A stretch of 20,000 nucleotides of DNA. It comes from an uncultured virus (IMG/VR IMGVR_UViG_3300029288_000003) (Duplodnaviria > Heunggongvirae > Uroviricota > Caudoviricetes). Of this stretch, positions 4,063-15,162 are shown piece by piece; the first letter of the stretch is position 1; each line of letters starts with the position of its first letter. Both the position numbers and the translations under genes were made by a program. The notes below the pieces were generated by a model. The model saw nothing but the letters and a program-made list of their open reading frames with translations. It ran no database searches and was not told the DNA's origin. The DNA is taken from the IMG/VR virus record IMGVR_UViG_3300029288_000003, one strand, 5' to 3'.

Positions 4063-4154
4063 CGCTTTAAGACGTGCCGGATTCATGGCCGGAAGGGTGC
4101 AAGTCCCAATAAGGTCTAGTAGACCAACCGGGTGCAAGGCCCGGCTATCATTCT

Positions 4155-4199
4155 AAAGCCCGCTATACCGGATGGCCGGTCACTGGCGGGTTTCCTTTT
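4155..4199 (+). terminator. Probable intrinsic terminator
   Basis: Stem AAGCCCGCTA/TGGCGGGTTT with inner ACCGG/CCGGT, followed by TTTCCTTTT. Confidence 0.55.
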
Positions 4200-4213
4200 A
4201 CCCAGGGGGTCTA

Positions 4214-4441
4214 ATTGTCGGGGTCGATTTTTGTTGAAAATAAACCCCAGAAATTTTAAGGCCCTATACGGCAGATTATCGGGGTCATATTCGATGTCCA
4301 ATTCGGACGTACAATTATCGGGGTCATGGATTAACTTATATTTTAGTTATATTTCTTGGACCCCGCTATTCCGAATTATCCGACGCTCTAACCCAGAAAT
4401 TAAAAAGGTTAATTGCTGATAAACTGTGACCCCGATAGTCG
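4214..4441. repeat. Cluster of ATT(G/A)TCGGGGTC motif copies
   Basis: Copies at 4214, 4274 and 4314 (+) and 4427-4441 (-). Confidence 0.8.
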
Positions 4442-4523
4442 CCTGTATGTTGCTGGCGTCACTAAGGGTTTATCCGATTCTAGCCGCACGGCAAGAATCC
4501 CTCACAGATTTTTACCGCTGGCC

Positions 4524-4551
4524 TTGACTTTGTTGCAAAACGTGGTATAGT
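4524..4551 (+). promoter_or_regulatory. sigma70-type promoter TTGACT-N16-TATAGT with extended -10 TG
   Basis: Near-consensus hexamers with the same spacing as the other promoters. Confidence 0.7.
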
Positions 4552-4556
4552 TAAGA

Positions 4557-4795
4557 TGTTGAGGGAAATTGTGCTACCGAAAACTTATAGGAGATACAGC
4601 CAACCGACTTTCAATTCCGTAACCGCTTAAAAGCTACTGCCCGCCTTGATACTGTAAGTATCTCTATGTCGGGATTCCCGGTACTCGCGGTAGAATAGCC
4701 GTATCATCGGCACTATAAGTCTTGGCAACGCAACCTCTTGCGGTAATCCTTGTTTCGGCCTCAATGCTTGTAGCTGGTTGTTGTTCCTCCCTTGC
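4557..4795 (+). ncRNA. Candidate structured ncRNA (about 240 nt)
   Basis: Lies between promoter 4524-4551 and terminator 4800-4838; no ORF in the track; nested complementary segments. Confidence 0.5.
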
Positions 4796-4799
4796 ACAC

Positions 4800-4838
4800 G
4801 GGCGGGTAGGTGTGTGGCCTATCCCGCCCATTCTTTTT
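4800..4838 (+). terminator. Intrinsic terminator
   Basis: GGGCGGGTAGG/CCTATCCCGCCC stem followed by ATTCTTTTT. Confidence 0.75.
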
Positions 4839-5038
4839 GTCCGATTAAGTCGATTGTCGGGGTCATGGATAACATAAAAATTTTTATGTTGCGCTTTTTT
4901 CGGCTCGCTAACCCCAGGTAAAATAAGAACTTACGACTTTTTGGATTCCAGCTTGGTGGAAATTTGAGGGTCGCAATGTAGGGGAAACCGGCACCCCTTG
5001 ACCGTTATAATTGATATAATCGGCCAAGTAGCGGTACA

Positions 5039-5074
5039 ATCGTTAAGATCGTTAAAACCGTTAGAACCGATAAG
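5039..5074. repeat. Four imperfect 9-bp tandem repeats
   Basis: ATCGTTAAG ATCGTTAAA ACCGTTAGA ACCGATAAG. Confidence 0.6.
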
Positions 5075-5099
5075 ATTATTATAAACGATCTAATCGGAA

Positions 5100-5241
5100 A
5101 CCCCACTGGGATCGGCACAAGAGTTGTGACCGATACAACCGGCAGAATTGCAACGTATTGACGTTGCAATCGGTAGAATCGCTACAATCGGTAGCATTTG
5201 ACGGTCTAACCGTCAAAATCGCACCATTCGCTATCCTAACA
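5100..5241 (-). ncRNA. Candidate multi-hairpin ncRNA (3' end uncertain)
   Basis: Downstream of the perfect minus-strand promoter; hairpins at 5111-5134, 5147-5170, 5181-5195 and 5197-5217. Confidence 0.45.
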
Positions 5242-5247
5242 CTATCT

Positions 5248-5275
5248 ATTATACCACGCCGTTGTGGTTTGTCAA
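5248..5275 (-). promoter_or_regulatory. sigma70-type promoter TTGACA-N16-TATAAT (minus strand)
   Basis: Reverse complement reads TTGACAaaccacaacggcgtggTATAAT, a perfect consensus with extended -10 TG. Confidence 0.8.
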
Positions 5276-5482
5276 CTACAATCCAGATAAACGGCCTTTT
5301 CTGGTTGGCGGGGTGATGCCAAGATTGTCGATTGTCGGGGTCATGGCATTTTACGCGCCTGCGCGTAATATAGTATAATGTCAAAATCTGCGCCGGAATA
5401 ATTGTAAAATGTGATAGATCGAAAAAATCTGTTGCAATCTGAAAAAATCTTTGCAGGTTTCCGAACTATCGGCCAATTTTGC

Positions 5483-5510
5483 TTGACACCCGCCGACGGC
5501 ATGGTAAGAT
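5483..5510 (+). promoter_or_regulatory. sigma70-type promoter TTGACA-N16-TAAGAT
   Basis: Upstream of the GGAGGG RBS and ATG 5554. Confidence 0.75.
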
Positions 5511-5553
5511 ACAATGTAAGTCTGATTTTCCCTATCTAACGGAGGGCTAGGCA

Positions 5554-6963
5554 ATGGCGATAGCTACGTCGAAAATCGAATTACCCAACCATACACAATG
5601 CCCGGATTGTCGGCAATGGTATGAGGGGGAAGGGGCAACGGCATACGGCAATGGTGACACCCGTACAGTATGCCCTAATTGTGCGGAATTGGCGGGATAT
5701 GTTGCTTGTGACGATTGCGGCAAGCTATTCCCCGAATTGCACGATTGCGACGGGGATAACTATTGCGACGATTGCGCCGATTCGCACGGGTTTAAGCAAT
5801 GTTCGCAATGTGACGAATGGATGGATTCTGACGATCTGGAAGAATATGACGATGAGTTGTATTGCCGGGAATGTGCCGATGCCGCCGATCTATACCATTG
5901 TGACGATTGCGGCAAGCTATTCCACACTGACGATTTAACCGATTGCGACGGTAACTACTATTGCGACCGTTGCAAGGATAACAATGGGTATACGGAATGT
6001 TACCATTGCCATGATACTATCCATCGGGACCATTGTAGCACGGGTGCCGATGATGAGGATTATTGCGAATCGTGCTGGTGTGACCATTTTTCGGTTTGTG
6101 AGGATTGTGGCACAACTATCTGGACTGACGATTGTGTCTATACTAGGGATGCTTGCTATTGTAGCGATTGTGCCCCTGGTGCCGAGAATTACGAACCGAA
6201 GCGTTTTGACGGTTCTAACAATACTTTCACAAAAATCGGTCAGCGCGCCTTTGGCGTAGAAATCGAGACTGACGAATGTGATGGTTATGAGGATTACGAC
6301 GGTCGGGGCGCCTTTGGCGCAAAACCCGATGCTTCCGTAAATGGCAAAGAGTTTTATTCTGACATTCTTTCCGGGGATAAGGGTCTTGCGGAAATTGAGC
6401 AGTTTTGCCGTTTTGCGGATCGTAACGGTTTTGCCGTTGATTCCAGTTGTGGGCTTCATGCCCATTTTGACATGCGGAACGAAAATAACGATAGCATGAA
6501 GTCTATCGCTTGTGCCATGCTTTCCACTTATGAGGTTTGGAAGGCTTTTGTCGATGAGGCAAGACACGACAATCATTACTGTCATGCTAGTTGTGCCAGT
6601 TTGGGCGAAGTTTACGGCGTTACCGATTTTAGGGATTGGGGCGGTCGTAGGCGTCGTTACGAATGGCTCAATTTTGTGGCCTATTACGAACATAGGAGTA
6701 TTGAGGTTCGGTTGCATCATGGCAGTCTTAACGCCACTGAGATATGTAACTGGATTAGGGGTATTTCCTTGTGGATGGATTGGGCCGCAAGTAAGGGTTG
6801 GAAGGAAGTAAGGGATTCTCTGATTTACAAGAGTTATGCCGAAAGATTCGCCCTTATGTGCAAGGTTTGGGAAAATGCCGGTTGTGCCGATCTTGTCGAT
6901 TGGTTCAAGGAACGGGTTGAAGCATCGGAAATCGAATGGGCCGAATTAGCCGAAGTAGCCTAA
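5554..6963 (+). CDS. Putative amidoligase (COOH-NH2 ligase type) with long N-terminal CxxC Zn-ribbon repeat region
   Basis: Motifs FGVEIE, D.S, EF.S..L, CGLHAH, RY..LN and IEVR.H.GSL typical of phage amidoligases; first ~205 aa are CxxC...YCxxC repeats. Confidence 0.85.
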   Translation: MAIATSKIELPNHTQCPDCRQWYEGEGATAYGNGDTRTVCPNCAELAGYVACDDCGKLFPELHDCDGDNYCDDCADSHGFKQCSQCDEWMDSDDLEEYDDELYCRECADAADLYHCDDCGKLFHTDDLTDCDGNYYCDRCKDNNGYTECYHCHDTIHRDHCSTGADDEDYCESCWCDHFSVCEDCGTTIWTDDCVYTRDACYCSDCAPGAENYEPKRFDGSNNTFTKIGQRAFGVEIETDECDGYEDYDGRGAFGAKPDASVNGKEFYSDILSGDKGLAEIEQFCRFADRNGFAVDSSCGLHAHFDMRNENNDSMKSIACAMLSTYEVWKAFVDEARHDNHYCHASCASLGEVYGVTDFRDWGGRRRRYEWLNFVAYYEHRSIEVRLHHGSLNATEICNWIRGISLWMDWAASKGWKEVRDSLIYKSYAERFALMCKVWENAGCADLVDWFKERVEASEIEWAELAEVA

Positions 6964-6979
6964 TTGGAGGGTTAGGCCG

Positions 6980-7011
6980 TAGGGCGGGGTCATACCCGCC
7001 CTATCTTTTTT
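6980..7011 (+). terminator. Intrinsic terminator
   Basis: TAGGGCGGG/CCCGCCCTA stem followed by TCTTTTTT. Confidence 0.8.
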
Positions 7012-7022
7012 GCCAGTTTGTC

Positions 7023-7073
7023 CGATTGTCGGGGTCATACCTGGCGCTCCCGCGCATTCGTTATGACCCCGAT
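7023..7073. repeat. Inverted pair of the CGATTGTCGGGGTCA motif
   Basis: Full copy at 7023-7037 (+); ATGACCCCGAT at 7063-7073 (-). Confidence 0.75.
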
Positions 7074-7158
7074 GATAGTAATAAACGGCCTGTATTCCCT
7101 CTGACGTTACAATCGGACCCTAGCCCCGTGGTTTTCCACGCTATCCCGTCGATTTTGC

Positions 7159-7186
7159 TTGACTAAGCAAAATGCCGATCTATGCT
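7159..7186 (+). promoter_or_regulatory. sigma70-type promoter TTGACT-N16-TATGCT
   Basis: Near-consensus hexamers; upstream of ORF 7241. Confidence 0.7.
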
Positions 7187-7240
7187 TGTATAGTGGAGGG
7201 CGGGAGTTTACAACACTAGCCTATTGTGGAGGGTGCTAAA

Positions 7241-7429
7241 ATGGACCTAGTTTGTATCCGTTGTGGCAATGCGTTTGTGTCTAGTCGGTCCCATGATCTA
7301 TGCCCCGATTGTCGCAAGAGGGAATCCCGCAAGCGCGCCTATCTGCGCAGAAAAGAGCGGGAATCCATTTTGCGGGATTGCGGGCTAGTCAAGGTTAGGG
7401 GCGCTCTTGGCGGGGTCTATTGGGAGTAG
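7241..7429 (+). CDS. Small Zn-finger (CxxC...CxxC) basic protein
   Basis: GGAGGG RBS before ATG 7241; CIRC...CPDC. Confidence 0.75.
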   Translation: MDLVCIRCGNAFVSSRSHDLCPDCRKRESRKRAYLRRKERESILRDCGLVKVRGALGGVYWE

Positions 7430-7440
7430 AAAAAATCTAC

Positions 7441-7468
7441 TTGACAACCCGCAACCTTGACCTATGCT
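7441..7468 (+). promoter_or_regulatory. sigma70-type promoter TTGACA-N16-TATGCT
   Basis: Followed by ATATAGAAGGGGAG leader/RBS. Confidence 0.75.
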
Positions 7469-7493
7469 TGATATAGAAGGGGAGGGCGAAACA

Positions 7494-7559
7494 ATGCTTT
7501 ACCTGATTTTGATTTTCGCGTTTCTCTGGTTGTCGGGTTCACTTGACCGTTTACTCTAG
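7494..7559 (+). CDS. 21-aa hydrophobic micropeptide
   Basis: MLYLILIFAFLWLSGSLDRLL; own promoter and strong GGAGGG RBS. Confidence 0.6.
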   Translation: MLYLILIFAFLWLSGSLDRLL

Positions 7560-7569
7560 GGGGTGTGCT

Positions 7570-7749
7570 ATGCGATACCGCATTATCAGCCGGGAGAATG
7601 TCGAAACCTCATACGATTTTGTCAACCTTACGATTGCGGGTTTCCGCTCTGCGCATGATGCTTGCCAAGTATGCCAGCGTATTGACATACTGGCATACGT
7701 GATGGATACTTTCACGGGGCAAACCTTATACGAAAATTGGAAGGGGTAA
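7570..7749 (+). CDS. Hypothetical protein
   Basis: Start reassigned to ATG 7570 (AGGGGG RBS). Confidence 0.7.
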   Translation: MRYRIISRENVETSYDFVNLTIAGFRSAHDACQVCQRIDILAYVMDTFTGQTLYENWKG

Positions 7750-7752
7750 ACC

Positions 7753-8043
7753 ATGCGAAAGCTACGGCAAGCTATCGTCAAGGTTTTGGCCGATCTAAAA
7801 TCGGTCGAATATACCGATAAGGTTATCGGCCCCCTTGCCCATTGTGTCGCATACTTGGAAGGGTTGGCCGATCCAACAACGGAACAAGAGCGGGAAAGCC
7901 TAGTTGTCGGGTTGCGGGATTGCGTCAACCAGTTTGATGATTTTGCCGAAATTGAGGAAGATAACGGCAATACCAATTCTGCCGAAGTTTTGCATCTTGC
8001 CCGTTGGGATGCTTTAATGGCCATTTACTTTTTTGACAGGTGA
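7753..8043 (+). CDS. Hypothetical protein
   Basis: AAGGGG RBS; in the gene train. Confidence 0.75.
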   Translation: MRKLRQAIVKVLADLKSVEYTDKVIGPLAHCVAYLEGLADPTTEQERESLVVGLRDCVNQFDDFAEIEEDNGNTNSAEVLHLARWDALMAIYFFDR

Positions 8044-8046
8044 ACC

Positions 8047-8343
8047 ATGAAACTGGTCTGTAGCGGTTATACCGAAGAGCGCAGAAGCGCCCGTTTTAAG
8101 GGTTGGGCAAACGCCCTAGCTTCTCCCCGGTTTACAATCTTGCGGGCGGACGATACCCCCATTGTCGATTGCGATATGGGGACAATGGCGATTACAACCT
8201 ATACGGTTAGCTTGGAAGGGCACCCCGCCCGTACAATCAGCCGTAAAGACATACAACCTACCGCCCGGTTGTATTGTGACGCCCAACGGTTGCGGAAAAG
8301 CATAGGGACCGCGCCCCTTATGCTTATCCGTCCTAACCGTTAG
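8047..8343 (+). CDS. Hypothetical protein
   Basis: AGGTG RBS; in the gene train. Confidence 0.7.
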   Translation: MKLVCSGYTEERRSARFKGWANALASPRFTILRADDTPIVDCDMGTMAITTYTVSLEGHPARTISRKDIQPTARLYCDAQRLRKSIGTAPLMLIRPNR

Positions 8344-8390
8344 AATCGGGCCGAAAAGCAAAGAATCGGGAAAGATTTTTCCCGTATTGC

Positions 8391-8418
8391 TTGACACCCG
8401 CCACCCCTAACGTATGAT
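8391..8418 (+). promoter_or_regulatory. sigma70-type promoter TTGACA-N16-TATGAT
   Basis: Followed by AATAGAAGGGGAG leader/RBS. Confidence 0.75.
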
Positions 8419-8438
8419 TAAATAGAAGGGGAGAGACA

Positions 8439-8585
8439 ATGGGCGGAACAATTACAAGGTTGACGATTCTCCGACACCCGCTATTGATTGCGGGGTTGTT
8501 TGGGTGGCGGGTTGCGGTTATGGGTATCGTTCATCCCCACCCGATAACTTTCCTTGACCTCTTGCGGACAATGGGGAGGGTGTAG
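8439..8585 (+). CDS. Small hypothetical protein (48 aa)
   Basis: MGGTITRLTILRHPLLIAGLFGWRVAVMG...; promoter and RBS upstream. Confidence 0.6.
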   Translation: MGGTITRLTILRHPLLIAGLFGWRVAVMGIVHPHPITFLDLLRTMGRV

Positions 8586-8587
8586 CA

Positions 8588-8941
8588 ATGCTTACGAAAA
8601 CCGAAAGATACGCGATAGCAAACGCCGCAATCGCCAAGCTAGGGGCGCGTAGGGCAATGGAAGCATCCCGCCCGGTTTACCCGCCGATACCCAACCCGAC
8701 GGGTTTTGACGGGGTGGACCTCTTGCCCGGTCGATACCCCCGTTATCGGGCGCGTATCCGATTTTGTGACGCCCTTAGTGGGCAGGATACCCGTATCACA
8801 TTGGGCACCCGGTTTGATAGTGCCGAACAAGCGGGGTATGCTTACGCTGCCGCGCACGTAAAGCTATGGGGCGCGGTTAGCCGATACACCCGCGATATAT
8901 CGCCGGATGAATTGCAAGCAATGATCGACGGGGGCCGATGA
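8588..8941 (+). CDS. Stand-alone AP2-domain DNA-binding protein
   Basis: TGFDGV...YRARI...ITLGTRFDSAEQAGYAYAAAHVKLWG matches the AP2 pattern (G..GV..W/Y.A.I...LG.F.T.E.A..AY..A...L.G); no HNH motif. Confidence 0.75.
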   Translation: MLTKTERYAIANAAIAKLGARRAMEASRPVYPPIPNPTGFDGVDLLPGRYPRYRARIRFCDALSGQDTRITLGTRFDSAEQAGYAYAAAHVKLWGAVSRYTRDISPDELQAMIDGGR

Positions 8942-8948
8942 TTTTTAT

Positions 8949-8976
8949 TTGACAATCACAATTCCCGATCTATGCT
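8949..8976 (+). promoter_or_regulatory. sigma70-type promoter TTGACA-N16-TATGCT
   Basis: Followed by ATATAGGAAGGGG leader/RBS. Confidence 0.75.
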
Positions 8977-8999
8977 TAATATAGGAAGGGGATACAATC

Positions 9000-9266
9000 A
9001 TGGCGACAACAAAACGATACGGGCGGAATGGTGGCGAGTATGCGGGCGGGTACTATCGCCGACAACCGGGCGGGTGGTGGTATCTATGGGCCAACGTGGA
9101 AGATTACGCCAACGGCAAACCACGCGATACCGTCTTGTGTGGCCCCTTGCCGGTTGCGGAAGTAAGGGCACAACTAGCCCGCTATGTGGCGGATAGGGCG
9201 GTAGAAGCATTGCAAGCGGGGCGGGTTGTCGGTTATGTTTTGGGTGCTAACAGACTGGGGGTGTAA
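9000..9266 (+). CDS. Hypothetical protein
   Basis: Promoter and RBS upstream. Confidence 0.75.
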   Translation: MATTKRYGRNGGEYAGGYYRRQPGGWWYLWANVEDYANGKPRDTVLCGPLPVAEVRAQLARYVADRAVEALQAGRVVGYVLGANRLGV

Positions 9267-9267
9267 C

Positions 9268-9546
9268 ATGGTTACAAGAGAAGGGGTTGCCGATAGTGTC
9301 GCGCGGGTGGTCAAGCTACTTGATAACCCCCGCCTTGCCCCTTGTCCCCGTAATTCGGTTGTGCGGGATGCAAGGGCTGCGCTGATTGCGCAGATTTTTT
9401 GGGGTGATAGGGTTCTTGCCGCCTATAGGGATGGTATCGACCCTATGCCCTTTGCCGACGAAATGGCGAAAGCCTATCATCGGGGTCATGCCGCGCTTGA
9501 CAAGTTTGTGGATTGTATCCGAAACAAGGATTGCAACGGGGTCTAA
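9268..9546 (+). CDS. Hypothetical protein, paralogue of 367..651
   Basis: Start reassigned to ATG 9268; ARAALIAQIFWGDRVLAAYRD. Confidence 0.78.
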   Translation: MVTREGVADSVARVVKLLDNPRLAPCPRNSVVRDARAALIAQIFWGDRVLAAYRDGIDPMPFADEMAKAYHRGHAALDKFVDCIRNKDCNGV

Positions 9547-9547
9547 C

Positions 9548-9856
9548 ATGGTCAATATGTTTTGTGAGGATTGCAACGGTTGCGATCATTGTGAGTGTTG
9601 CACCGATTGCACGAATTGCATGAATTGCGGGTTTTCCTACAAGTCTACCCGTTGCGTCAAGTCGTCGCATGTTATCAGGTGTAACGAGTGTGTCGATTGT
9701 GACGTTTGCGAGAATTGCAATCATTGCATCGGTTGTCACGATTGCAAGGATTGTGAGTATTGTATCGACTGCGGGGGTCTTGTCGGTCGTAAGTATTGCA
9801 TCGGTGGTAGGCAATATACCGAAGCAGAGTTTTTTACCGTATTGGGCAGGGCATGA
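9548..9856 (+). CDS. Cysteine-rich Cxx-repeat protein
   Basis: Start reassigned to ATG 9548; C at about every third residue; C-terminal CGGLVGRKYCIGGRQYTEAEF. Confidence 0.8.
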   Translation: MVNMFCEDCNGCDHCECCTDCTNCMNCGFSYKSTRCVKSSHVIRCNECVDCDVCENCNHCIGCHDCKDCEYCIDCGGLVGRKYCIGGRQYTEAEFFTVLGRA

Positions 9857-10023
9857 TAGACCCCGAAAAAACCGCCGAAAAAATCCTAGCTAGTTGTCAG
9901 TCTGATAGCGACATAGCACAAGAGCTAGGATTGTCGCCCGATGCTATAGCTATCATCCGCGCAGCGTATGACATTGGGCGGGATGATGGCATGGTAGAAG
10001 AATCTAGCGGGTGGGGGCGATAG
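9853..10023 (+). CDS. Small hypothetical protein (56 aa)
   Basis: MIDPEKTAEKILASC...IRAAYDIGRDDG...; ATGA coupling. Confidence 0.65.
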   Translation: MIDPEKTAEKILASCQSDSDIAQELGLSPDAIAIIRAAYDIGRDDGMVEESSGWGR

Positions 10024-10226
10024 TGGCAAGCTACAAGCATAGCAACGGTCGGCTAGTCCATCGGCGGGGCGGTAGGTTTCGCGTATCGACCCTTGCCGAT
10101 ATTGGCCTTGCCGTATGTTCTGTTTGCGGCAAGCTATATGCCCCTGATTTTAGCGACATAGCGGGTGTGGTCGATCCCCGCATTATCAAGGATCGACAAA
10201 CAACCTGCCCGGATTGCCGAAAATGA
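10023..10226 (+). CDS. Small Zn-finger protein
   Basis: CSVC...CPDC; GTG start overlapping the previous TAG. Confidence 0.7.
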   Translation: MASYKHSNGRLVHRRGGRFRVSTLADIGLAVCSVCGKLYAPDFSDIAGVVDPRIIKDRQTTCPDCRK

Positions 10227-10363
10227 AACGATACCTAATTTTGCTGGGGTGTGTATCCGCTATGGTGTGTAGTTGTGGGCTATTGTGGCAATACCCCATG
10301 TGGTGTAGTGTTGTATCATTCTGGTTAGGGGCGATATACGCCACCCTACAGTATGGGAGATAG
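10223..10363 (+). CDS. Small membrane protein (46 aa)
   Basis: MKRYLILLGCVSAMVCSCGLLWQYPMWCSVVSFWLGAIYATLQYGR; ATGA coupling. Confidence 0.55.
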   Translation: MKRYLILLGCVSAMVCSCGLLWQYPMWCSVVSFWLGAIYATLQYGR

Positions 10364-10364
10364 T

Positions 10365-10490
10365 ATGTCGTTTGTGGTAGTCAATCTGTTATCTGCCCTG
10401 ATTTACTTGCTTGTAGTGGGTGTACCGCTTTGTCTACTTGGAGGGGTGCTAGGGGCTATGATAGTCGGGCTGATTAAATCGCTACGCTAG
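10365..10490 (+). CDS. Small membrane protein (41 aa)
   Basis: MSFVVVNLLSALIYLLVVGVPLCLLGGVLGAMIVGLIKSLR; GGGAG RBS. Confidence 0.6.
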   Translation: MSFVVVNLLSALIYLLVVGVPLCLLGGVLGAMIVGLIKSLR

Positions 10491-10926
10491 TTGCCCTTTG
10501 CTCGATTTAATGCCGGAAATGGCCGTTTTTATTTGCTCGGTTTTGCCGATTGTCGGGGTCGAATCGACCCGATTAAAGTGTAGTCAAAATGATGGCGCTA
10601 TATTGTAGTCAATATGATACACCCAAACGGGTTATGGGTTCGCGTGTTCTGATAATGCGAATAATACCTTGTGTATGGATACGGAGGGTGCGGAGGATAG
10701 CAACAGTGGGGACGGCTGGTTGCTTGTTGGTGGTTATAACGGATGTGCGGTGTCTCGCTCCTCGCGCAATGGAGCAATGGAAAAACCCTAAGAAATGTTA
10801 AAATCGTTAGACAAGCTACAATCCATACACTTATTACCACTGTTATAAACGCATATTGTTCTATTTATATGGATTATATGGGTCAAATACGGTTGTATCA
10901 AGCGTGTCGATTGTCGCAAGTGGGCT

Positions 10927-11001
10927 GATTGTCGGGGTCATACCGGGTCTAGGCGGAATATACGGTACAATACATACAAACATTCGTGACCCCGACAATC
11001 G
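10927..11001. repeat. Perfect 14-bp inverted pair of the GATTGTCGGGGTCA motif
   Basis: GATTGTCGGGGTCA at 10927-10940 and TGACCCCGACAATC at 10987-11000. Confidence 0.85.
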
Positions 11002-11460
11002 TTATACATACTACATGCTTACATGCTTAGCATATTCGTTATAATAGTAATGATCGTTATAACAGTTACCTATGTATCTATGTATGGATTGTAGTATGTA
11101 TGCAGGTTGTGTGTAGTATGTGTGATGTAACATACATACAGACTACATGCAACATACTGGTTATAGGGGGTATAGTATATTTAATAAATAAAATAAATAT
11201 ATTATTTATTCTAATAATACAGTATATGCCCTATATCATACATGGTGCGAGCGTGTCGGTTGTCGGGGTGGGGATGACTGGGAGGGTCAAATTGATTGTA
11301 GTGAGTCTGACGATTATAACGATTCCTCCGGCCGCTGTTCTGACTGGCGTAGTAGTCAAAAATAGGTCTCTAACGCGGCAATTCGCCAATTTTAAAGAAA
11401 ATCGTCAATTTATGACGAGTTAAAAAGATATAACTGCTTATCCGCTAAGTAGTTATAGAT

Positions 11461-11856
11461 TTGAAATGCATAATTGAAACGCAAAAAGCTATTTATGCCT
11501 TTTTAATTTCGCCGAACGAATGCACACCCCCCGGACTTAACTTTACGTTTCAATTGACACAAACTACAGGCTGGTAAGGGTTTAAAGCAGGCTCTCACGC
11601 ACACTTAGGGCAGATTGAAACTCAAATATATATTTCTCACGAGGAAAAGTTTTACTACGCGAGAGAAAATATATTTTTGTATATAAGGGAGATGTTTCCA
11701 GGGACAAAAGCATACATTTGCGTTTCAATTAGAAACCCGGCGTCCCAAGTCCAGGGCAGGTAGCTTGTTAGGAATTGAAACGCAAAGATAAAACCCTCAT
11801 TTTGGCGAAATCGCGCCCTCAAAAACACAGGTATGCGTTTCAATTATGCATTTCAA
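11461..11856. repeat. Inverted-repeat cassette: 23-bp perfect outer IR with six alternating AATTGAAACGCA-type boxes
   Basis: TTGAAATGCATAATTGAAACGCA at 11461-11483 and its exact reverse complement at 11834-11856; inner boxes at 11546, 11614, 11717 and 11773. Confidence 0.85.
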
Positions 11857-12199
11857 TCACAGTCCCATACGTCCCTGTACGTTTGAGTTTTATTAAACGC
11901 GACCATATTTGAGGGCATGTTGCTTGTTCGGGAGTGACCTTATGATTATTCACTATCATTCCAAGCCGCTTGTATAAAGTGCTTATGGCTATATTACCAC
12001 ATGCCTGATGATGCAGTTGATAGATAGTAGAGTACCGCTTCCCTGACAACTCGAAGAATTCAGGCACCACGGCCACTTCTGGCGGCAGGTCGCGTAATCG
12101 CTTCCGAAGAATATGAATGGTACTTACATAACAACGCGGATGCTCAAAAAGCTCCTGTGCATTTGCAAACTTCTGACCCCAGCATATAATCATACGCAA
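11840..12199 (-). CDS. Putative DNA-binding protein with two NUMOD/HTH-like repeats
   Basis: ICWGQKFAN...PRC.V....L.KRL...PPEVAV and G..Y..I...ISTLYKRL...PEQA; resembles 19704..20000. Confidence 0.65.
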   Translation of the reverse strand: MRMIICWGQKFANAQELFEHPRCYVSTIHILRKRLRDLPPEVAVVPEFFELSGKRYSTIYQLHHQACGNIAISTLYKRLGMIVNNHKVTPEQATCPQIWSRLIKLKRTGTYGTVIEMHN

Positions 12200-12324: not shown

Positions 12325-12425
12325 AATAAATTTACCCAATCTATAATATGAGTGTAAATATAAAGCATACCAGCGGCTAGTACCATGATCCAAAAAAGAC
12401 AAATCAAATCATCTAATAGCTTCAT
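12312..12425 (-). CDS. Small membrane protein (37 aa)
   Basis: MKLLDDLICLFWIMVLAAGMLYIYTHIIDWVNLLWNI fills the gap in the gene train. Confidence 0.45.
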   Translation of the reverse strand: MKLLDDLICLFWIMVLAAGMLYIYTHIIDWVNLLWNI

Positions 12426-12852
12426 ATTCTATAATCTCCACTCGCTCTATCACATCACCTTGTTTAATAGCATTAACTACATTCATACCTTCAATAACCT
12501 GACCAAAAACACTATGTTTACCATTAAGCCAAGGACAGTTGCAGTGGCAGATGAAAAACTGGCTTGAAGACGTATTTGGTCCGCTATTCGCCATCGACAA
12601 ACAACCAGCAGTATGCAGGAGGCGAGGGTCAAATTCGTCTGGTATGAGGTAGCCCGCACTTCCGAACCCCGTTCCTAGCGGGCAGCCGGTTTGAATCATA
12701 AAATCAGCAATTACTCTATGAAATTTCAAGCCATCATAAAAGCCTGCGTTGACAAGATTCTTGAAATTTGCTACTGTATTAGGCACAAGTGGTGATAGTG
12801 CTGCTACTATAATCCCTCGATTTGTTGTAATAATTACTGTATCAAGCCCCAT
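12409..12852 (-). CDS. Cyclophilin-type peptidyl-prolyl cis-trans isomerase
   Basis: P.TV.NF, FYDG..FHRVI..FMIQ.G, LSMAN.GPNT.SSQFFI, WLNGKHSVFGQV.EG. Confidence 0.95.
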   Translation of the reverse strand: MGLDTVIITTNRGIIVAALSPLVPNTVANFKNLVNAGFYDGLKFHRVIADFMIQTGCPLGTGFGSAGYLIPDEFDPRLLHTAGCLSMANSGPNTSSSQFFICHCNCPWLNGKHSVFGQVIEGMNVVNAIKQGDVIERVEIIEYEAIR

Positions 12853-12998
12853 GAGCGTAAACACCTTTCCATATATTCAGGGAATCGTTGATCTTCGACT
12901 GTGGAATCATCAGGCAACAAGCCCGTGGCTAACCAATGAAGATACTGTTCATGTGTTAGCTTCCATCCAGCAAGCTGTTCGAGTTCATGTTTTGTCAT
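12834..12998 (-). CDS. Small hypothetical protein (54 aa)
   Basis: MTKHELEQLAGWKLTHEQYLHWLATG...; fills the gap in the gene train. Confidence 0.55.
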   Translation of the reverse strand: MTKHELEQLAGWKLTHEQYLHWLATGLLPDDSTVEDQRFPEYMERCLRSWGLIQ

Positions 12999-13254
12999 TG
13001 AAATACCGATAATAGATGGCCTGCCCGACCCAAACCGTGTTGGCTGTTACCACACCGAGTCCACCAACTAGACTCCACCACGCATTCACATAAGGGTAAA
13101 AGTACAAATTCCAGAACCCCCAGGCGTTAAAAAAGATCATTGGCAGGAGGCTAACGCCCTTCAACTCTTTGTCAAGGTAGAGTTGCCAACAATTTTTAGC
13201 AATGACAACCCCGCCCAGAAGTTCAAATCCACCGTTGATTATATCAGGTAACAT
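12985..13254 (-). CDS. 3-TM membrane protein, SemiSWEET/PQ-loop-like
   Basis: 89 aa with three hydrophobic segments; LY.DK..KGVS motif after helix 1. Confidence 0.6.
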   Translation of the reverse strand: MLPDIINGGFELLGGVVIAKNCWQLYLDKELKGVSLLPMIFFNAWGFWNLYFYPYVNAWWSLVGGLGVVTANTVWVGQAIYYRYFNDKT

Positions 13255-13630
13255 TCATCACCCTCTCTGTATATTTCCAAGCAAACGGCACCCACAGCAC
13301 CCAATATCCTGCATCATGCAATTTTGATACCATTTGCTGGCCTGCCGCTTTATTGAGGGTATGCACAATGATTTTATCAATCTTTGGTTTGTGTTCAATA
13401 ATCCAGCGCACAACCTCCATGCCTGTATCAGGATCGGCAGAATTCGCGGCCTCTTTCCCACCGAGGTCGTGATCTAAGAAAACCCAATCCCACTTAACCC
13501 AACCCAGATTCTCGCCGTCGGATAAAAAGTTAATACAATCAACAGCCGTAGCCACAGTAATCGCCGACGGTACTGCCGACCGGAATACTTTTGTTCGTTC
13601 AGGACAATCATCTAGGAACAGAATACTCAT
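13244..13630 (-). CDS. Stand-alone receiver-like protein (cyclic-phosphate-processing REC type)
   Basis: LFLDD, FLDHDLG, TG.EV..W and IVHT.N motifs; start reassigned to MSILFLDD. Confidence 0.75.
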   Translation of the reverse strand: MSILFLDDCPERTKVFRSAVPSAITVATAVDCINFLSDGENLGWVKWDWVFLDHDLGGKEAANSADPDTGMEVVRWIIEHKPKIDKIIVHTLNKAAGQQMVSKLHDAGYWVLWVPFAWKYTERVMNVT

Positions 13631-13672
13631 TTTATCTCGCTCTATGCTTTTGCACCGTCGCAATTTTTGGAA

Positions 13673-13888
13673 TCATTCGGACCAACCGTATTGAACCGAT
13701 TTCATTGGCCAACCACCTTGGACTTGCCCGCAGTCAAGACAGATAACCAATTCAATTTCACCTTCGCCTTCCACATTTGTCCCGATAAGACGAGTAGCCC
13801 CAGTACCTTTAATGTAGGCTAATTTATCAGATTGGCAAGATTGACATTTAGAAGGCAAGTTTGTTGTAGTGGGGAGGGTTAATTGCAT
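13673..13888 (-). CDS. Small Zn-ribbon protein
   Basis: CQSC...CLDCGQVQG. Confidence 0.7.
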   Translation of the reverse strand: MQLTLPTTTNLPSKCQSCQSDKLAYIKGTGATRLIGTNVEGEGEIELVICLDCGQVQGGWPMKSVQYGWSE

Positions 13889-14325
13889 ACTTTGTTCCTT
13901 ACAATATTACGCAAATCATACGTAGCAAATTTTCGGATATTTTTTGGATTCACAGGCCCGGTTAGAAAATCAAATGGCTTAGCATGGTGTCCAAAATACG
14001 GGCAATCTAAATCATGTGTTAAATGTAAAGTATCGTCAGGGTGATTATGTGTATATTGACAATATGCTGATATGCTTGGATCAAATTTTAGCTTTAAACC
14101 GACTAACCGGATGCTTTGATGTTGACTACCTAATGCAACTAACATGCCAATCAGTTCTAATCCATGTAAAGGACGGGGCCAAATCCAAATAGCCCCAGGC
14201 CGGATTAGTTCACCAATGGTATCACGAAACCTCTCATAATAGTGTGAAGCTACAGAATGTGGTAGCAGGCCACTTATCCGTATTTCGCGCCATTGTTTTA
14301 AGGTTGTGTAGTGATACCCTAACAT
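13879..14325 (-). CDS. Hypothetical protein, possible ADP-ribosyltransferase-like fold
   Basis: N-terminal YHYTT....I...GLLP and later IW.W resemble ART-fold strand motifs; function tentative. Confidence 0.55.
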   Translation of the reverse strand: MLGYHYTTLKQWREIRISGLLPHSVASHYYERFRDTIGELIRPGAIWIWPRPLHGLELIGMLVALGSQHQSIRLVGLKLKFDPSISAYCQYTHNHPDDTLHLTHDLDCPYFGHHAKPFDFLTGPVNPKNIRKFATYDLRNIVRNKVCN

Positions 14326-14495
14326 ACGTAATTCACTTTTAAAACTTCGAGGGCTGCCATTACATCATTAAAAGCCAATTGCGCTGACTCTTGAGCCGTG
14401 TTGGTATCCTCTATGGTCCCCTCAGTCGCGCCCTCAAGAATGTCGAACAAGTTATCGAGACGTTTTTGTACTTCTGTTTTTACGCGAACTAACAT
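14319..14495 (-). CDS. Small hypothetical protein (58 aa)
   Basis: MLVRVKTEVQKRLDNLFDILEG...; AGGAG RBS. Confidence 0.55.
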   Translation of the reverse strand: MLVRVKTEVQKRLDNLFDILEGATEGTIEDTNTAQESAQLAFNDVMAALEVLKVNYVC

Positions 14496-15162
14496 ATTTT
14501 ACTCCTAACCCTAGAAAATAAAGTAATGAGAGACAACCAGCCAGCCATAACATACTACATGGGTCTGGCGGGGTCAAAACTGCTGAGATAGCAACAATAG
14601 TAAAGATAGCCTGACGCCAGTATCCCGCCCAATTGATAGGTAAAACAAGCATGACTAATGGCAATTGAAATCCAATACCAAAACAAATTGGTAAAAGAAC
14701 CGCAAAATTCAGCCATGCTGACACTTGTGGCTGAATATCTACGCCTAAAGTTTTATTATACCCAAGTAGAAAGTTCAATATTGGCTCAAAAACTTGCAAA
14801 GCTACAATGTTACCCAATACAAACAAGCAAAGACTAGCAGGCAGCCAGCGAATAAGCCGTCGTTCATGCGGGTATAGCCCCTCTGCAATGAATTTCCAGA
14901 CTTGATAGAATATCCAAGGACTTGCAATTATTGTACCGAGGGTTAAAGCCGCCCGTAAATACAAATCAAATGCTTCTGTGACCGTAAAACTTGTTAAATG
15001 CGTAGAAAAGCCATTAGCAGACAGGGCTTTGACAAGTGGTTGCTGTAGTAATTTAACAACGGGCGTTGCAATAACACAACCGACAACAATTCCGACTACC
15101 CATCCCAAGAGGGAGAGGATCAATCGTCGTCGTAGCTCAATAAGATGGTCCCAGAATGTCAA
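14452..15162 (-). CDS. tatC: Twin-arginine translocase subunit TatC
   Basis: MTFWDHLIELRRRLI, EAF..Y, PWIFYQVWKFIAEGLYPHERR, FGIGFQLP, WR.AI and AVLTPPDP..M...A...LY; multiple TM segments. Confidence 0.93.
   Translation of the reverse strand: MTFWDHLIELRRRLILSLLGWVVGIVVGCVIATPVVKLLQQPLVKALSANGFSTHLTSFTVTEAFDLYLRAALTLGTIIASPWIFYQVWKFIAEGLYPHERRLIRWLPASLCLFVLGNIVALQVFEPILNFLLGYNKTLGVDIQPQVSAWLNFAVLLPICFGIGFQLPLVMLVLPINWAGYWRQAIFTIVAISAVLTPPDPCSMLWLAGCLSLLYFLGLGVKYVSSRKNRSTKTSR

Follow-up and report, generated by a model that had tools for sequence, protein, structure and literature searches.

A conserved DNA box at a strict distance behind intrinsic terminators in a clade of uncultured phages, and its possible role as a protein-bound boundary element

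The DNA analysed here (the window) is a 20,000-nucleotide stretch of the uncultured tailed virus IMGVR_UViG_3300029288_000003 (Caudoviricetes), and our subject is a short, G/C-rich word, the box, that recurs in the spaces between its small genes. We conclude that the box is genuine: a cis element found across the clade, whose position follows an unusually strict rule. Our analysis of what it does is less firm. With middling confidence, we read it as a protein-bound boundary element, similar to the stoperators of mycobacteriophages and set in terminator-box-promoter cassettes that resemble the promoter early stem-loop (PeSL) elements of T4-like myoviruses. More tentatively, we propose that its reader is encoded by the phage, the best candidate being the predicted AP2-fold protein of the open reading frame (ORF) at window positions 8588-8941.

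The 14-mer GATTGTCGGGGTCA has 11 matches in the window at no more than 2 mismatches, against 0.15 expected and a maximum of 2 in 200 shuffles, and the 8-mer core TCGGGGTC occurs 13 times, 9 times on the plus strand and 4 times on the minus strand (Table 1). From position counts and contexts, the 14-mer forms the core of an asymmetric box, GRTTGTAAC-GRTTR-TCGGGGTCA, in which one or two GRTTGTAAC/GRTTR half-sites about 9 bp apart are followed by TCGGGGTC and then by a variable base; the whole measures about 14-23 bp and is not palindromic. An earlier note on this DNA had listed 12 copies, and all are present, some of them one base away from the start that it gave. It had also described the motif as exclusively intergenic. 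This holds for the copies that it listed, but not strictly for the motif, because a further core copy (9475-9488) lies within ORF 9386-9856. The copy at 10548 overlaps just a 36-amino-acid ORF, the lowest score accepted by our crude gene caller, and the inverted copy at 7064 has 3 mismatches to the 14-mer with its core TCGGGGTCA intact. Arrays of half-sites without the core lie at 5038-5073 and 5167-5190.

The box is shared by related phages. The window is 99.98% identical to bases 88,492-105,376 of a 105-kb IMG/VR record (G001; completeness rating 79%), and four further records (G002, complete, 147 kb; G003, 175 kb; G004, 125 kb; G005, 67 kb) were reached through homologues of ORF 8588-8941 (27 proteins; alignment A1). 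In these four related genomes the box is kept at protein identities of just 45-67%. Its matches compare with those of a reversed-pattern control as 25 versus 2 in G001 (13-mer at no more than 2 mismatches), 32 versus 4 in G002, 53 versus 9 in G003, 13 versus 2 in G004 and 15 versus 0 in G005. The confinement that the earlier note had proposed to look for is also seen: 22 of the 25 matches in G001 fall within 77.5-99.5 kb, or 21% of the genome, and the box system therefore reaches about 11 kb upstream of the window. Matches cluster in each of the other four genomes as well. Strand use in G001 is 17 forward and 8 reverse. The half-site GTAACGATT follows the same regions, with 14 copies versus 1.4 expected in G002 (13 in the motif region) and 11 versus 1.9 expected in G003 (all in the motif region). 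Homologues of the AP2-like protein also lie on 15 short metagenome contigs; 11 of these have the 8-mer core, one of the 11 (L119) being the window's own sequence. An exact 14-mer scan of IMG/VR returned at least 118 stretches, with one match in each of the 80 stretches listed; these look like chance matches, except for the contig later named G005.

Within the five genomes, the box keeps to spacers. Genes were called with a crude codon-usage caller, and the matches that do not lie wholly within a called gene number 19 of 25 in G001 (non-coding share of the genome 14%; binomial p 7e-12), 20 of 32 in G002 (17%; p 1e-8), 38 of 53 in G003 (14%; p 9e-22), 8 of 13 in G004 (14%; p 7e-5) and 7 of 15 in G005 (10%; p 4e-4). 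The motif is not equally frequent in coding DNA; equal frequency there is what the earlier note had named as fatal to its claim. Several of the matches counted as coding lie in tiny ORFs after terminators, and these ORFs are probably not genes.

The position rule is set by intrinsic terminators, which we predicted as T-runs preceded by a hairpin of dG <= -14 kcal/mol. Copies had been reported right after three terminators in the window. Indeed, hairpin and T-run are real in each case, and a co-oriented core stands 26-27 nt past the first T of each; the copy said to follow the end of the gene train (10548) is also where it was claimed to be. In the motif regions of three genomes, the core starts 25-28 nt past the first T of 5 of 11 co-directional terminators in G001, 7 of 9 in G002 and 7 of 12 in G003. 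Overall, 19 of the 32 terminators in these regions show this offset versus 0 of 37 outside them; chance would give 0.002-0.004 per terminator. Counted to the start of the 14-mer, the distance is 21-23 bp past the first T of the U-tract. Two further terminator-near cores in G003 lie at offsets 9 and 19. Because the hairpin sequences differ among the terminator-box units, most of these are not recent duplicates; the exception is a near-identical terminator-plus-box unit duplicated in G003, at 129235 and 134169. All copies at the canonical 25-28-nt offset are co-oriented with the genes, and the offset-19 copy in G003 is inverted. Orientation overall is 85 co-oriented versus 38 anti-oriented copies (45:7 in G003).

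Along the DNA, the order is terminator, box, sigma70-type promoter. When promoter-like sites were defined as TTGACN, 16-18 nt, TANNNT, 54 of 106 cores had a co-directional site no more than 150 nt downstream of them, and 2 of 106 had a -10 no more than 150 nt upstream. It follows from this order that the box should be transcribed only by read-through. These results uphold the claim of an intergenic signal on either side of the early transcription units: the clade conserves it, and it lies after terminators and before promoters, where proteins that bind DNA, rather than RNA, act. Such a position also speaks against an RNA leader. We rejected the idea of the box as a -35/-10 promoter in its own right, as the TTGACC...TACAAT of inverted copies has an 11-nt spacer.

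Many copies come in pairs. Across the five genomes there are 24 convergent pairs (6, 9, 2, 4 and 3) versus 6 divergent ones; the inverted second copy often follows 21-59 bp after the co-oriented first, and the spacers are often G+C-rich. The modules at 7023 and 10927, which the earlier note had described as inverted pairs with a shared CATTCGT, are indeed convergent inverted pairs, but the CATTCGT is not kept in the pairs of G002. A comparison with G002 is informative about what is under constraint. When the window and G002 are compared past their orthologous amidoligase genes (45% amino acid identity), alignment is limited to the T-tract and the two box arms, with the box at 7024 kept at its orthologous place; the terminator stem and the inter-arm spacer have diverged. 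This alignment is a phylogenetic footprint of two separately constrained sequence sites, and it speaks for the box being recognised by its DNA sequence rather than as a hairpin.

A protein-bound boundary element would fit this arrangement. In such a model, the box acts as double-stranded DNA, a docking site for a sequence-specific protein. Once bound, the protein would mark and seal the boundary between neighbouring transcription units by halting RNA polymerase that arrives at, or reads through, the terminator, much as stoperators are proposed to do, and it would perhaps also tune the next promoter. Two published sources bear on the spacing: elongation complexes of E. coli stop 14 nt before the site of an EcoRI-Gln111 roadblock (10.1101/100073), and U-tracts are 7-9 nt long (PMC3993855). 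Fourteen nucleotides back from the 14-mer starts at 4213, 4852 and 7024 are positions 4199, 4838 and 7010, all of which are within U-tracts and are the 7th-9th nucleotides past the three hairpins. A polymerase stalled 14 nt short of the obstacle would have its RNA 3' end at the 7th-9th nucleotide past the hairpin, the normal release point, and for this reason the block would hold the polymerase on the U-tract. If the box is a protein-read boundary mark, it would explain the independence of dozens of small early cassettes under host RNA polymerase, and terminator, box and reader would together make a portable part with a directly testable spacing rule. For annotation of this uncultured clade, the box is a practical marker of transcription-unit ends.

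The candidate reader is a small protein. Its AP2 identity, proposed in the earlier note, escapes Pfam but emerges from structure: the protein of ORF 8588-8941 (P0001) has no Pfam match even at E<=10, and PF00847 finds nothing in the five genomes at E<=1, whereas an AlphaFold model matches plant AP2 structures. The model (mean pLDDT 71; 74-90 over the domain) places strands at residues 43-46, 52-60 and 67-76 and a helix at 79-98, giving a three-stranded antiparallel sheet packed on the helix. The top Foldseek match is 1gcc_A (prob 1.00, TM 0.68 by target, root-mean-square deviation (rmsd) 2.5 over 56 columns). VIA gives Z values of 6.1 for WRI1 (7WQ5), 5.9 for TEM1 (7ET4) and 5.3 for AtERF1 (1GCC), which are modest, as expected for a 55-residue domain; model residues 36-98 are overlaid at rmsd 1.9-2.2 A with 53-57 residues aligned and 28-33% identity, and the next row has Z 4.4 and rmsd 6.3. 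The four best PDB matches of the A1 profile, all weak (E 0.026-0.53), are the AP2/ERF proteins WRI1, AtERF1 (two entries) and ERF096, and an Atlas feature match with a score of 0.91 leads to a cluster with PF00847 in 53% of its members. The invariant residues R54, R56, R58 and R69 of alignment A1 sit on strands 2 and 3; R58 and R69 align in the profile with two arginines of AtERF1, which we take to be base contacts. The modelling therefore supports an AP2 fold. The resemblance is to plant AP2/ERF domains (1GCC, 7WQ5, 7ET4); unlike these and the HNH-AP2 endonucleases of phages, the protein falls below Pfam thresholds, has no HNH and carries extra N- and C-terminal helices.

AP2 domains bind G/C-rich boxes as monomers, which suits the asymmetric TCGGGGTC core. 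On the basis of this preference, the position of the gene and its co-occurrence with the motif, box and protein make a plausible but unproven pair, and we rate this pairing as somewhat short of an even chance. The gene lies inside the motif region in all five genomes, in line with the co-occurrence that the earlier note had proposed to look for in relatives; this sampling is biased, because the relatives were reached through the AP2 gene itself. Further relatives were reached through the terminase (TerL), of which the best 80 of at least 254 were kept and 11 longer contigs scanned. The AP2-like gene is absent from all eleven in a search for which G001-G005 were the positive control, and nine of the eleven have no box cluster, including G008 and G015 with a single one-mismatch match each. 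G011, a complete TerL relative, has neither the gene nor the motif. Twenty genes of G002 are common to G003 and G004 and missing in G011 and G012, and the only recognised DNA-binding fold among them is that of the AP2-like gene; 17 of the 20 were scanned with Pfam, and ten of these matched no family.

A bolder version of this model casts the stand-alone AP2-fold protein of a virulent phage as a transcription factor at protein-assisted, switchable terminators that insulate the early cassettes. The boxes would then stand one polymerase standoff (about 14 bp) past the release point and lock the polymerase on the U-tract. We consider this version rather unlikely. If true, the box would be a boundary element of a kind not described in bacteria or phages, and the protein would be the equivalent, in a virus of prokaryotes, of the AP2 regulators of plants and apicomplexans. 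Those regulators are thought to descend from the AP2 domains of endonucleases, and phage AP2 domains usually serve HNH endonucleases; a job for an HNH-less AP2-fold phage protein would bear on the passage of AP2 from selfish endonucleases to transcription factors.

Several points weigh against a protein-bound boundary element read by this protein. The geometric argument fails if the upstream half-site is also covered by protein, since the polymerase would then stop before the U-tract. Just about half to three quarters of the predicted terminators in the region have a box, and several promoters of the window (7441, 8391, 8949) carry none. T-rich terminators before the pairs were not found in the G+C-rich genomes G004 and G005, so terminator coupling is shown for three genomes only. 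Orientation is about even in G002, G004 and G005, owing to the inverted partner copies, and so departs from strict stoperator behaviour. The co-occurrence of box and AP2 gene is confounded, as the entire early region is specific to the clade; the other two of the eleven TerL relatives, the incomplete contigs G013 and G016, have boxes at their ends although no AP2 gene was seen in them, and 4 of the 15 AP2-bearing metagenome contigs (L120-L123) are without the core. Finally, genes, promoters and terminators come from simple heuristics, and the use of sigma70 rules for the host is an assumption.

Of the functions that the earlier note had offered for a protein-binding site, operator or roadblock fits best; nucleoid, injection and recombination sites have no specific support, with the one exception that the region is hyperplastic with scrambled gene order. 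A promoter operator is the main rival to a boundary element. It holds that an activator or repressor at the box controls the early promoters, for instance by timing the early genes or switching them off, and that proximity to terminators reflects tight packing. The 54 cores close upstream of a promoter-like site speak for it, as do 8 copies in G003 whose ends stand 11-14 nt ahead of a -35, where class I activators or UP elements are typically placed, and the window boxes at 5330 and 10927/10987, which lie between divergent promoter-like sites (5275-5248(-) and 5350-5379(+) for the first; 10901-10873(-) and 11018-11045(+) for the second). However, spacing to promoters is otherwise loose, at 11-143 nt and in both orientations, whereas spacing to terminators is tight, at 25-28 nt in three genomes. 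Moreover, the boxless promoters at 7441, 8391 and 8949 are strong ones, and no plus-strand promoter-like site follows the box at 10548. In our judgement, an operator is rather unlikely.

The state of the region speaks for a second rival, in which the box belongs to a PeSL-like shuffling cassette, is homogenised by repeated recombination or gene conversion, and serves mainly as microhomology for swaps of ORFan modules rather than as a protein site. Most G002 genes at 33-66 kb are without a homologue in G001, G003 and G004, the order of the shared genes in the motif region is scrambled, and cassettes of 1-8 genes are bounded by box pairs; the duplicated unit of G003 would also fit. According to parts of PMC4122927 and PMC2839356, PeSLs are terminator plus early-promoter cassettes that mediate such shuffling. 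Against this, the core is kept across 45-67% protein identity while stems and spacers have diverged, for which concerted evolution within a genome is no explanation; a PeSL is defined by its promoter and hairpin, and the box is neither; and a constant offset of 25-28 nt behind hairpins of unrelated sequence suggests that the position of the box is under selection. We regard shuffling as quite improbable.

Very improbable, too, is a nucleic-acid structure, with the inverted pairs forming RNA hairpins (for processing, stability or back-up termination) or DNA cruciforms. The excess of convergent pairs is compatible with it, and as single strands two of them fold stably (7018-7082, -29.4 kcal/mol, z -4.6; 10922-11005, -31.4 kcal/mol, z -4.4), but solo copies (4852, 10548, 5330) do not fold above background (z -0.05 and -0.80). 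The arms pair just over the invariant 8-11 bp; outside the 8-bp core they differ consistently, with GATTGT on the left and ATCAT or ACTAT on the right, and there is no co-variation. Elements that lie after terminators and before promoters would be rarely transcribed, and the pairs are followed by no U-tract and have no Rfam match.

Least probable of all is that a DNA enzyme, not a regulator, targets the box, which would then be a site-specific virion nick of the T5, tf or phiKMV-like type, a site for a homing endonuclease, or a Chi-like signal against nucleases. The T5-like traits of these phages (a dmp-type phosphatase and a long tape measure protein) and the usual partnership of phage AP2 domains with HNH endonucleases, to which the Atlas leads also point, speak for it; the AP2-like protein, for its part, has no nuclease domain, and no fused, longer homologue of it was found, which is weak evidence. 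Nick words do resemble the box in being short, conserved and present in many copies in virulent phages, and passages of PMC3517423 describe nicked phages with 9-19-nt consensus words many times over; but those of tf are on one strand only and not tied to spacers (PMC3517423), and nick words can stand anywhere in a genome, whereas the boxes use both strands, avoid genes, lie in spacers and keep a fixed terminator offset.

Among known systems, the element has most in common with stoperators in its logic and with PeSLs in its setting, and belongs to neither group. The stoperators of cluster A mycobacteriophages (L5 gp71, TipsytheTRex), in the passages of PMC9283540 that describe them, are more than 20 asymmetric 13-14-bp sites, oriented with transcription, in promoter regions and short intergenic spaces, and are proposed to halt elongating host RNA polymerase. 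Like them, the boxes are asymmetric and number more than 20 (25, 32 and 53 in G001, G002 and G003); they are enriched in spacers, and the copies at the canonical offset after a terminator are co-oriented with transcription. Unlike stoperators, which occur genome-wide and are read by a repressor with a helix-turn-helix plus a stoperator domain, the boxes are confined to about one-fifth of the genome, are coupled at a fixed distance to intrinsic terminators, often with an inverted partner, and have a candidate reader with an AP2 fold. An immunity repressor is an unlikely reader, because PF00589 found no tyrosine integrase in any of the five records, of which three are complete; no search was aimed at the repressor family as such.

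The PeSLs of T4-like myoviruses share with our units the combination of terminator and sigma70 early promoter in cassettes repeated through hyperplastic, ORFan-rich regions. In PeSLs, however, it is the stem-loop, an AT-rich stretch and the promoter that are conserved, whereas here distant genomes share a conserved G/C-rich box separate from these parts, in a phage of siphovirus-like type. PeSLs mediate cassette exchange and mini-circles; here, just scrambled gene order and ORFan cassettes are seen. The proposed obstacle, downstream at a 14-nt standoff, also recalls protein roadblocks such as EcoRI-Gln111, LacI and yeast roadblock termination, and roadblocks are proposed, in part of PMC10310618, to cooperate with canonical terminators in delimiting transcription units. 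In a narrow literature search, we came across no bacterium or phage that naturally sets a dedicated box at a constant distance past its intrinsic terminators.

Table 1. Boxes, terminators, promoter-like sites and the candidate reader in the window
Feature	Position	Strand	Remarks
Intrinsic terminator 1	4149..4199	+	hairpin + TTTCCTTTT; -21.0 kcal/mol
Box copy AATTGTCGGGGTCG	4213..4226	+	first after terminator 1; core 27 nt past first T at 4191
Box copy GATTATCGGGGTCA	4274..4287	+	
Box copy AATTATCGGGGTCA	4313..4326	+	left arm of wide convergent pair with 4427(-), spacer 102
Inverted box copy GACTATCGGGGTCA	4427..4440	-	
Sigma70-like promoter	4524..4551	+	downstream of 4213-4440 box cluster; 10/12, TG
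Intrinsic terminator 2	4800..4839	+	GGGCGGG...CCCGCCC + ATTCTTTTT; -23.5 kcal/mol
Exact box	4852..4865	+	first after terminator 2; core 26 nt past T-run start 4831
Half-site-only 9-bp tandem arrays	5038..5190	-	reverse complement AATCGTTAA / CAATCGCTA
Exact box, GATTGTC half-site doubled	5323..5343	+	14-mer match at 5330
Sigma70-like promoter of amidoligase gene	5483..5510	+	
Intrinsic terminator 3	6979..7012	+	CGGGGTCAT in stem-loop; -20.9 kcal/mol
Exact box	7024..7037	+	first after terminator 3; left arm of pair
Inverted box copy TATCATCGGGGTCA	7064..7077	-	right arm, spacer 28
Sigma70-like promoter	7159..7186	+	downstream of 7024/7064 pair
Degenerate copy, <=2 mismatches	7528	+	absent from the list in the earlier note
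Candidate reader, 117-aa protein	8588..8941	+	N-terminal helices, AP2-like domain at residues 43-98, C-terminal helix
Core copy TATCATCGGGGTCA	9475..9488	+	within Cys-rich ORF 9386-9856; absent from the list in the earlier note
Box copy GATTGTCGGGGTCG	10548..10561	+	58 nt past last + strand ORF
Exact box	10927..10940	+	left arm of pair
Exact inverted box	10987..11000	-	right arm, spacer 48
Degenerate copy CGGTTGTCGGGGTG	11257..11270	+	keeps TTGTCGGGGT

The phage itself is probably a large, virulent, siphovirus-type phage that relies on host RNA polymerase. The structural genes of G002 include a 1,280-amino-acid tape measure protein, a major head protein, a portal and a large terminase; its further genes include RNA and DNA ligases, RtcB, the dmp-type phosphatase, three amidoligases and a ParB-like protein. 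A scan of 72 ORFs of at least 170 amino acids in G002 gave no RNA polymerase or integrase family match; this, with the lack of a tyrosine integrase match in the five records, is why we read the phage as probably virulent and a user of the host enzyme. Megablast of the window against GenBank phages gave no match. Searches of viral contigs with the amidoligase and with the single AP2 protein returned nothing, and tblastn with the amidoligase returned distant amidoligases only. The sequencing runs that contain the sequence are landfill and groundwater metagenomes, with no RNA runs among them; contigs of four DNA runs were short fragments with joints at diverged stretches, and yielded nothing usable about cassette exchange and no molecule ends. 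A 1.2-kb contig (L269) binned with an Anaerolinea metagenome-assembled genome encodes a homologue with 57% identity to the AP2-like protein and has no box core; as a hint to the host this is faint at best, and too little to name one.

Small genes occupy the plus strand of the window up to 10,490 and converge on minus-strand genes from about 11,600, whose products include TatC, a cyclophilin, a cREC receiver, a dCMP deaminase and a nucleoside deoxyribosyltransferase. The TatC, cyclophilin-type prolyl isomerase and cREC receiver domain genes adjoin one another at 12409-15162 (-). ORF 5554-6963 encodes a 469-amino-acid amidoligase whose N-terminus has Cys-rich repeats; the same region of G002 has three amidoligase paralogues together with a glutamine amidotransferase and a radical SAM gene. 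ORF 9386-9856 encodes a Cys-rich CxxC-repeat protein (phrog_15341) and overlaps ORF 9226-9546 in another frame, with a terminator-like hairpin at 9377-9393.

Other observations concern terminators, promoters and repeats. The CGGGGTCAT that the earlier note had seen in the terminator stem-loop at 6980 is present in the 6979-7004 hairpin, and GGCGGGGTCAT, a near-copy of the box core, occurs inside terminator hairpins both there and at about 49811-49850 of G002. No other shared word was seen after the predicted terminators of the motif-less G011 and G012. Four tandem box copies with a 28-bp period lie directly after a terminator, and inverted relative to it, at G013:496-609 (L259). About 280 nt between the promoter at 4524-4551 and the terminator at 4800-4839 (window 4552-4839) hold no credible ORF and may be a non-coding RNA; Rfam gave no match at E<=1 across the whole window. 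The minus-strand promoter at 5275-5248, a 12/12 sigma70 match, reads into the half-site arrays, where there is likewise no credible ORF. Finally, a second repeat family, ATTGAAACGCAA, which is not enriched in G002-G005, has 7 copies that alternate in orientation at intervals of 59-104 nt within the AT-rich convergence zone of the window (11473-11857), and a paralogous stretch, 74% identical, holds 4 copies at G001:10626-10883.

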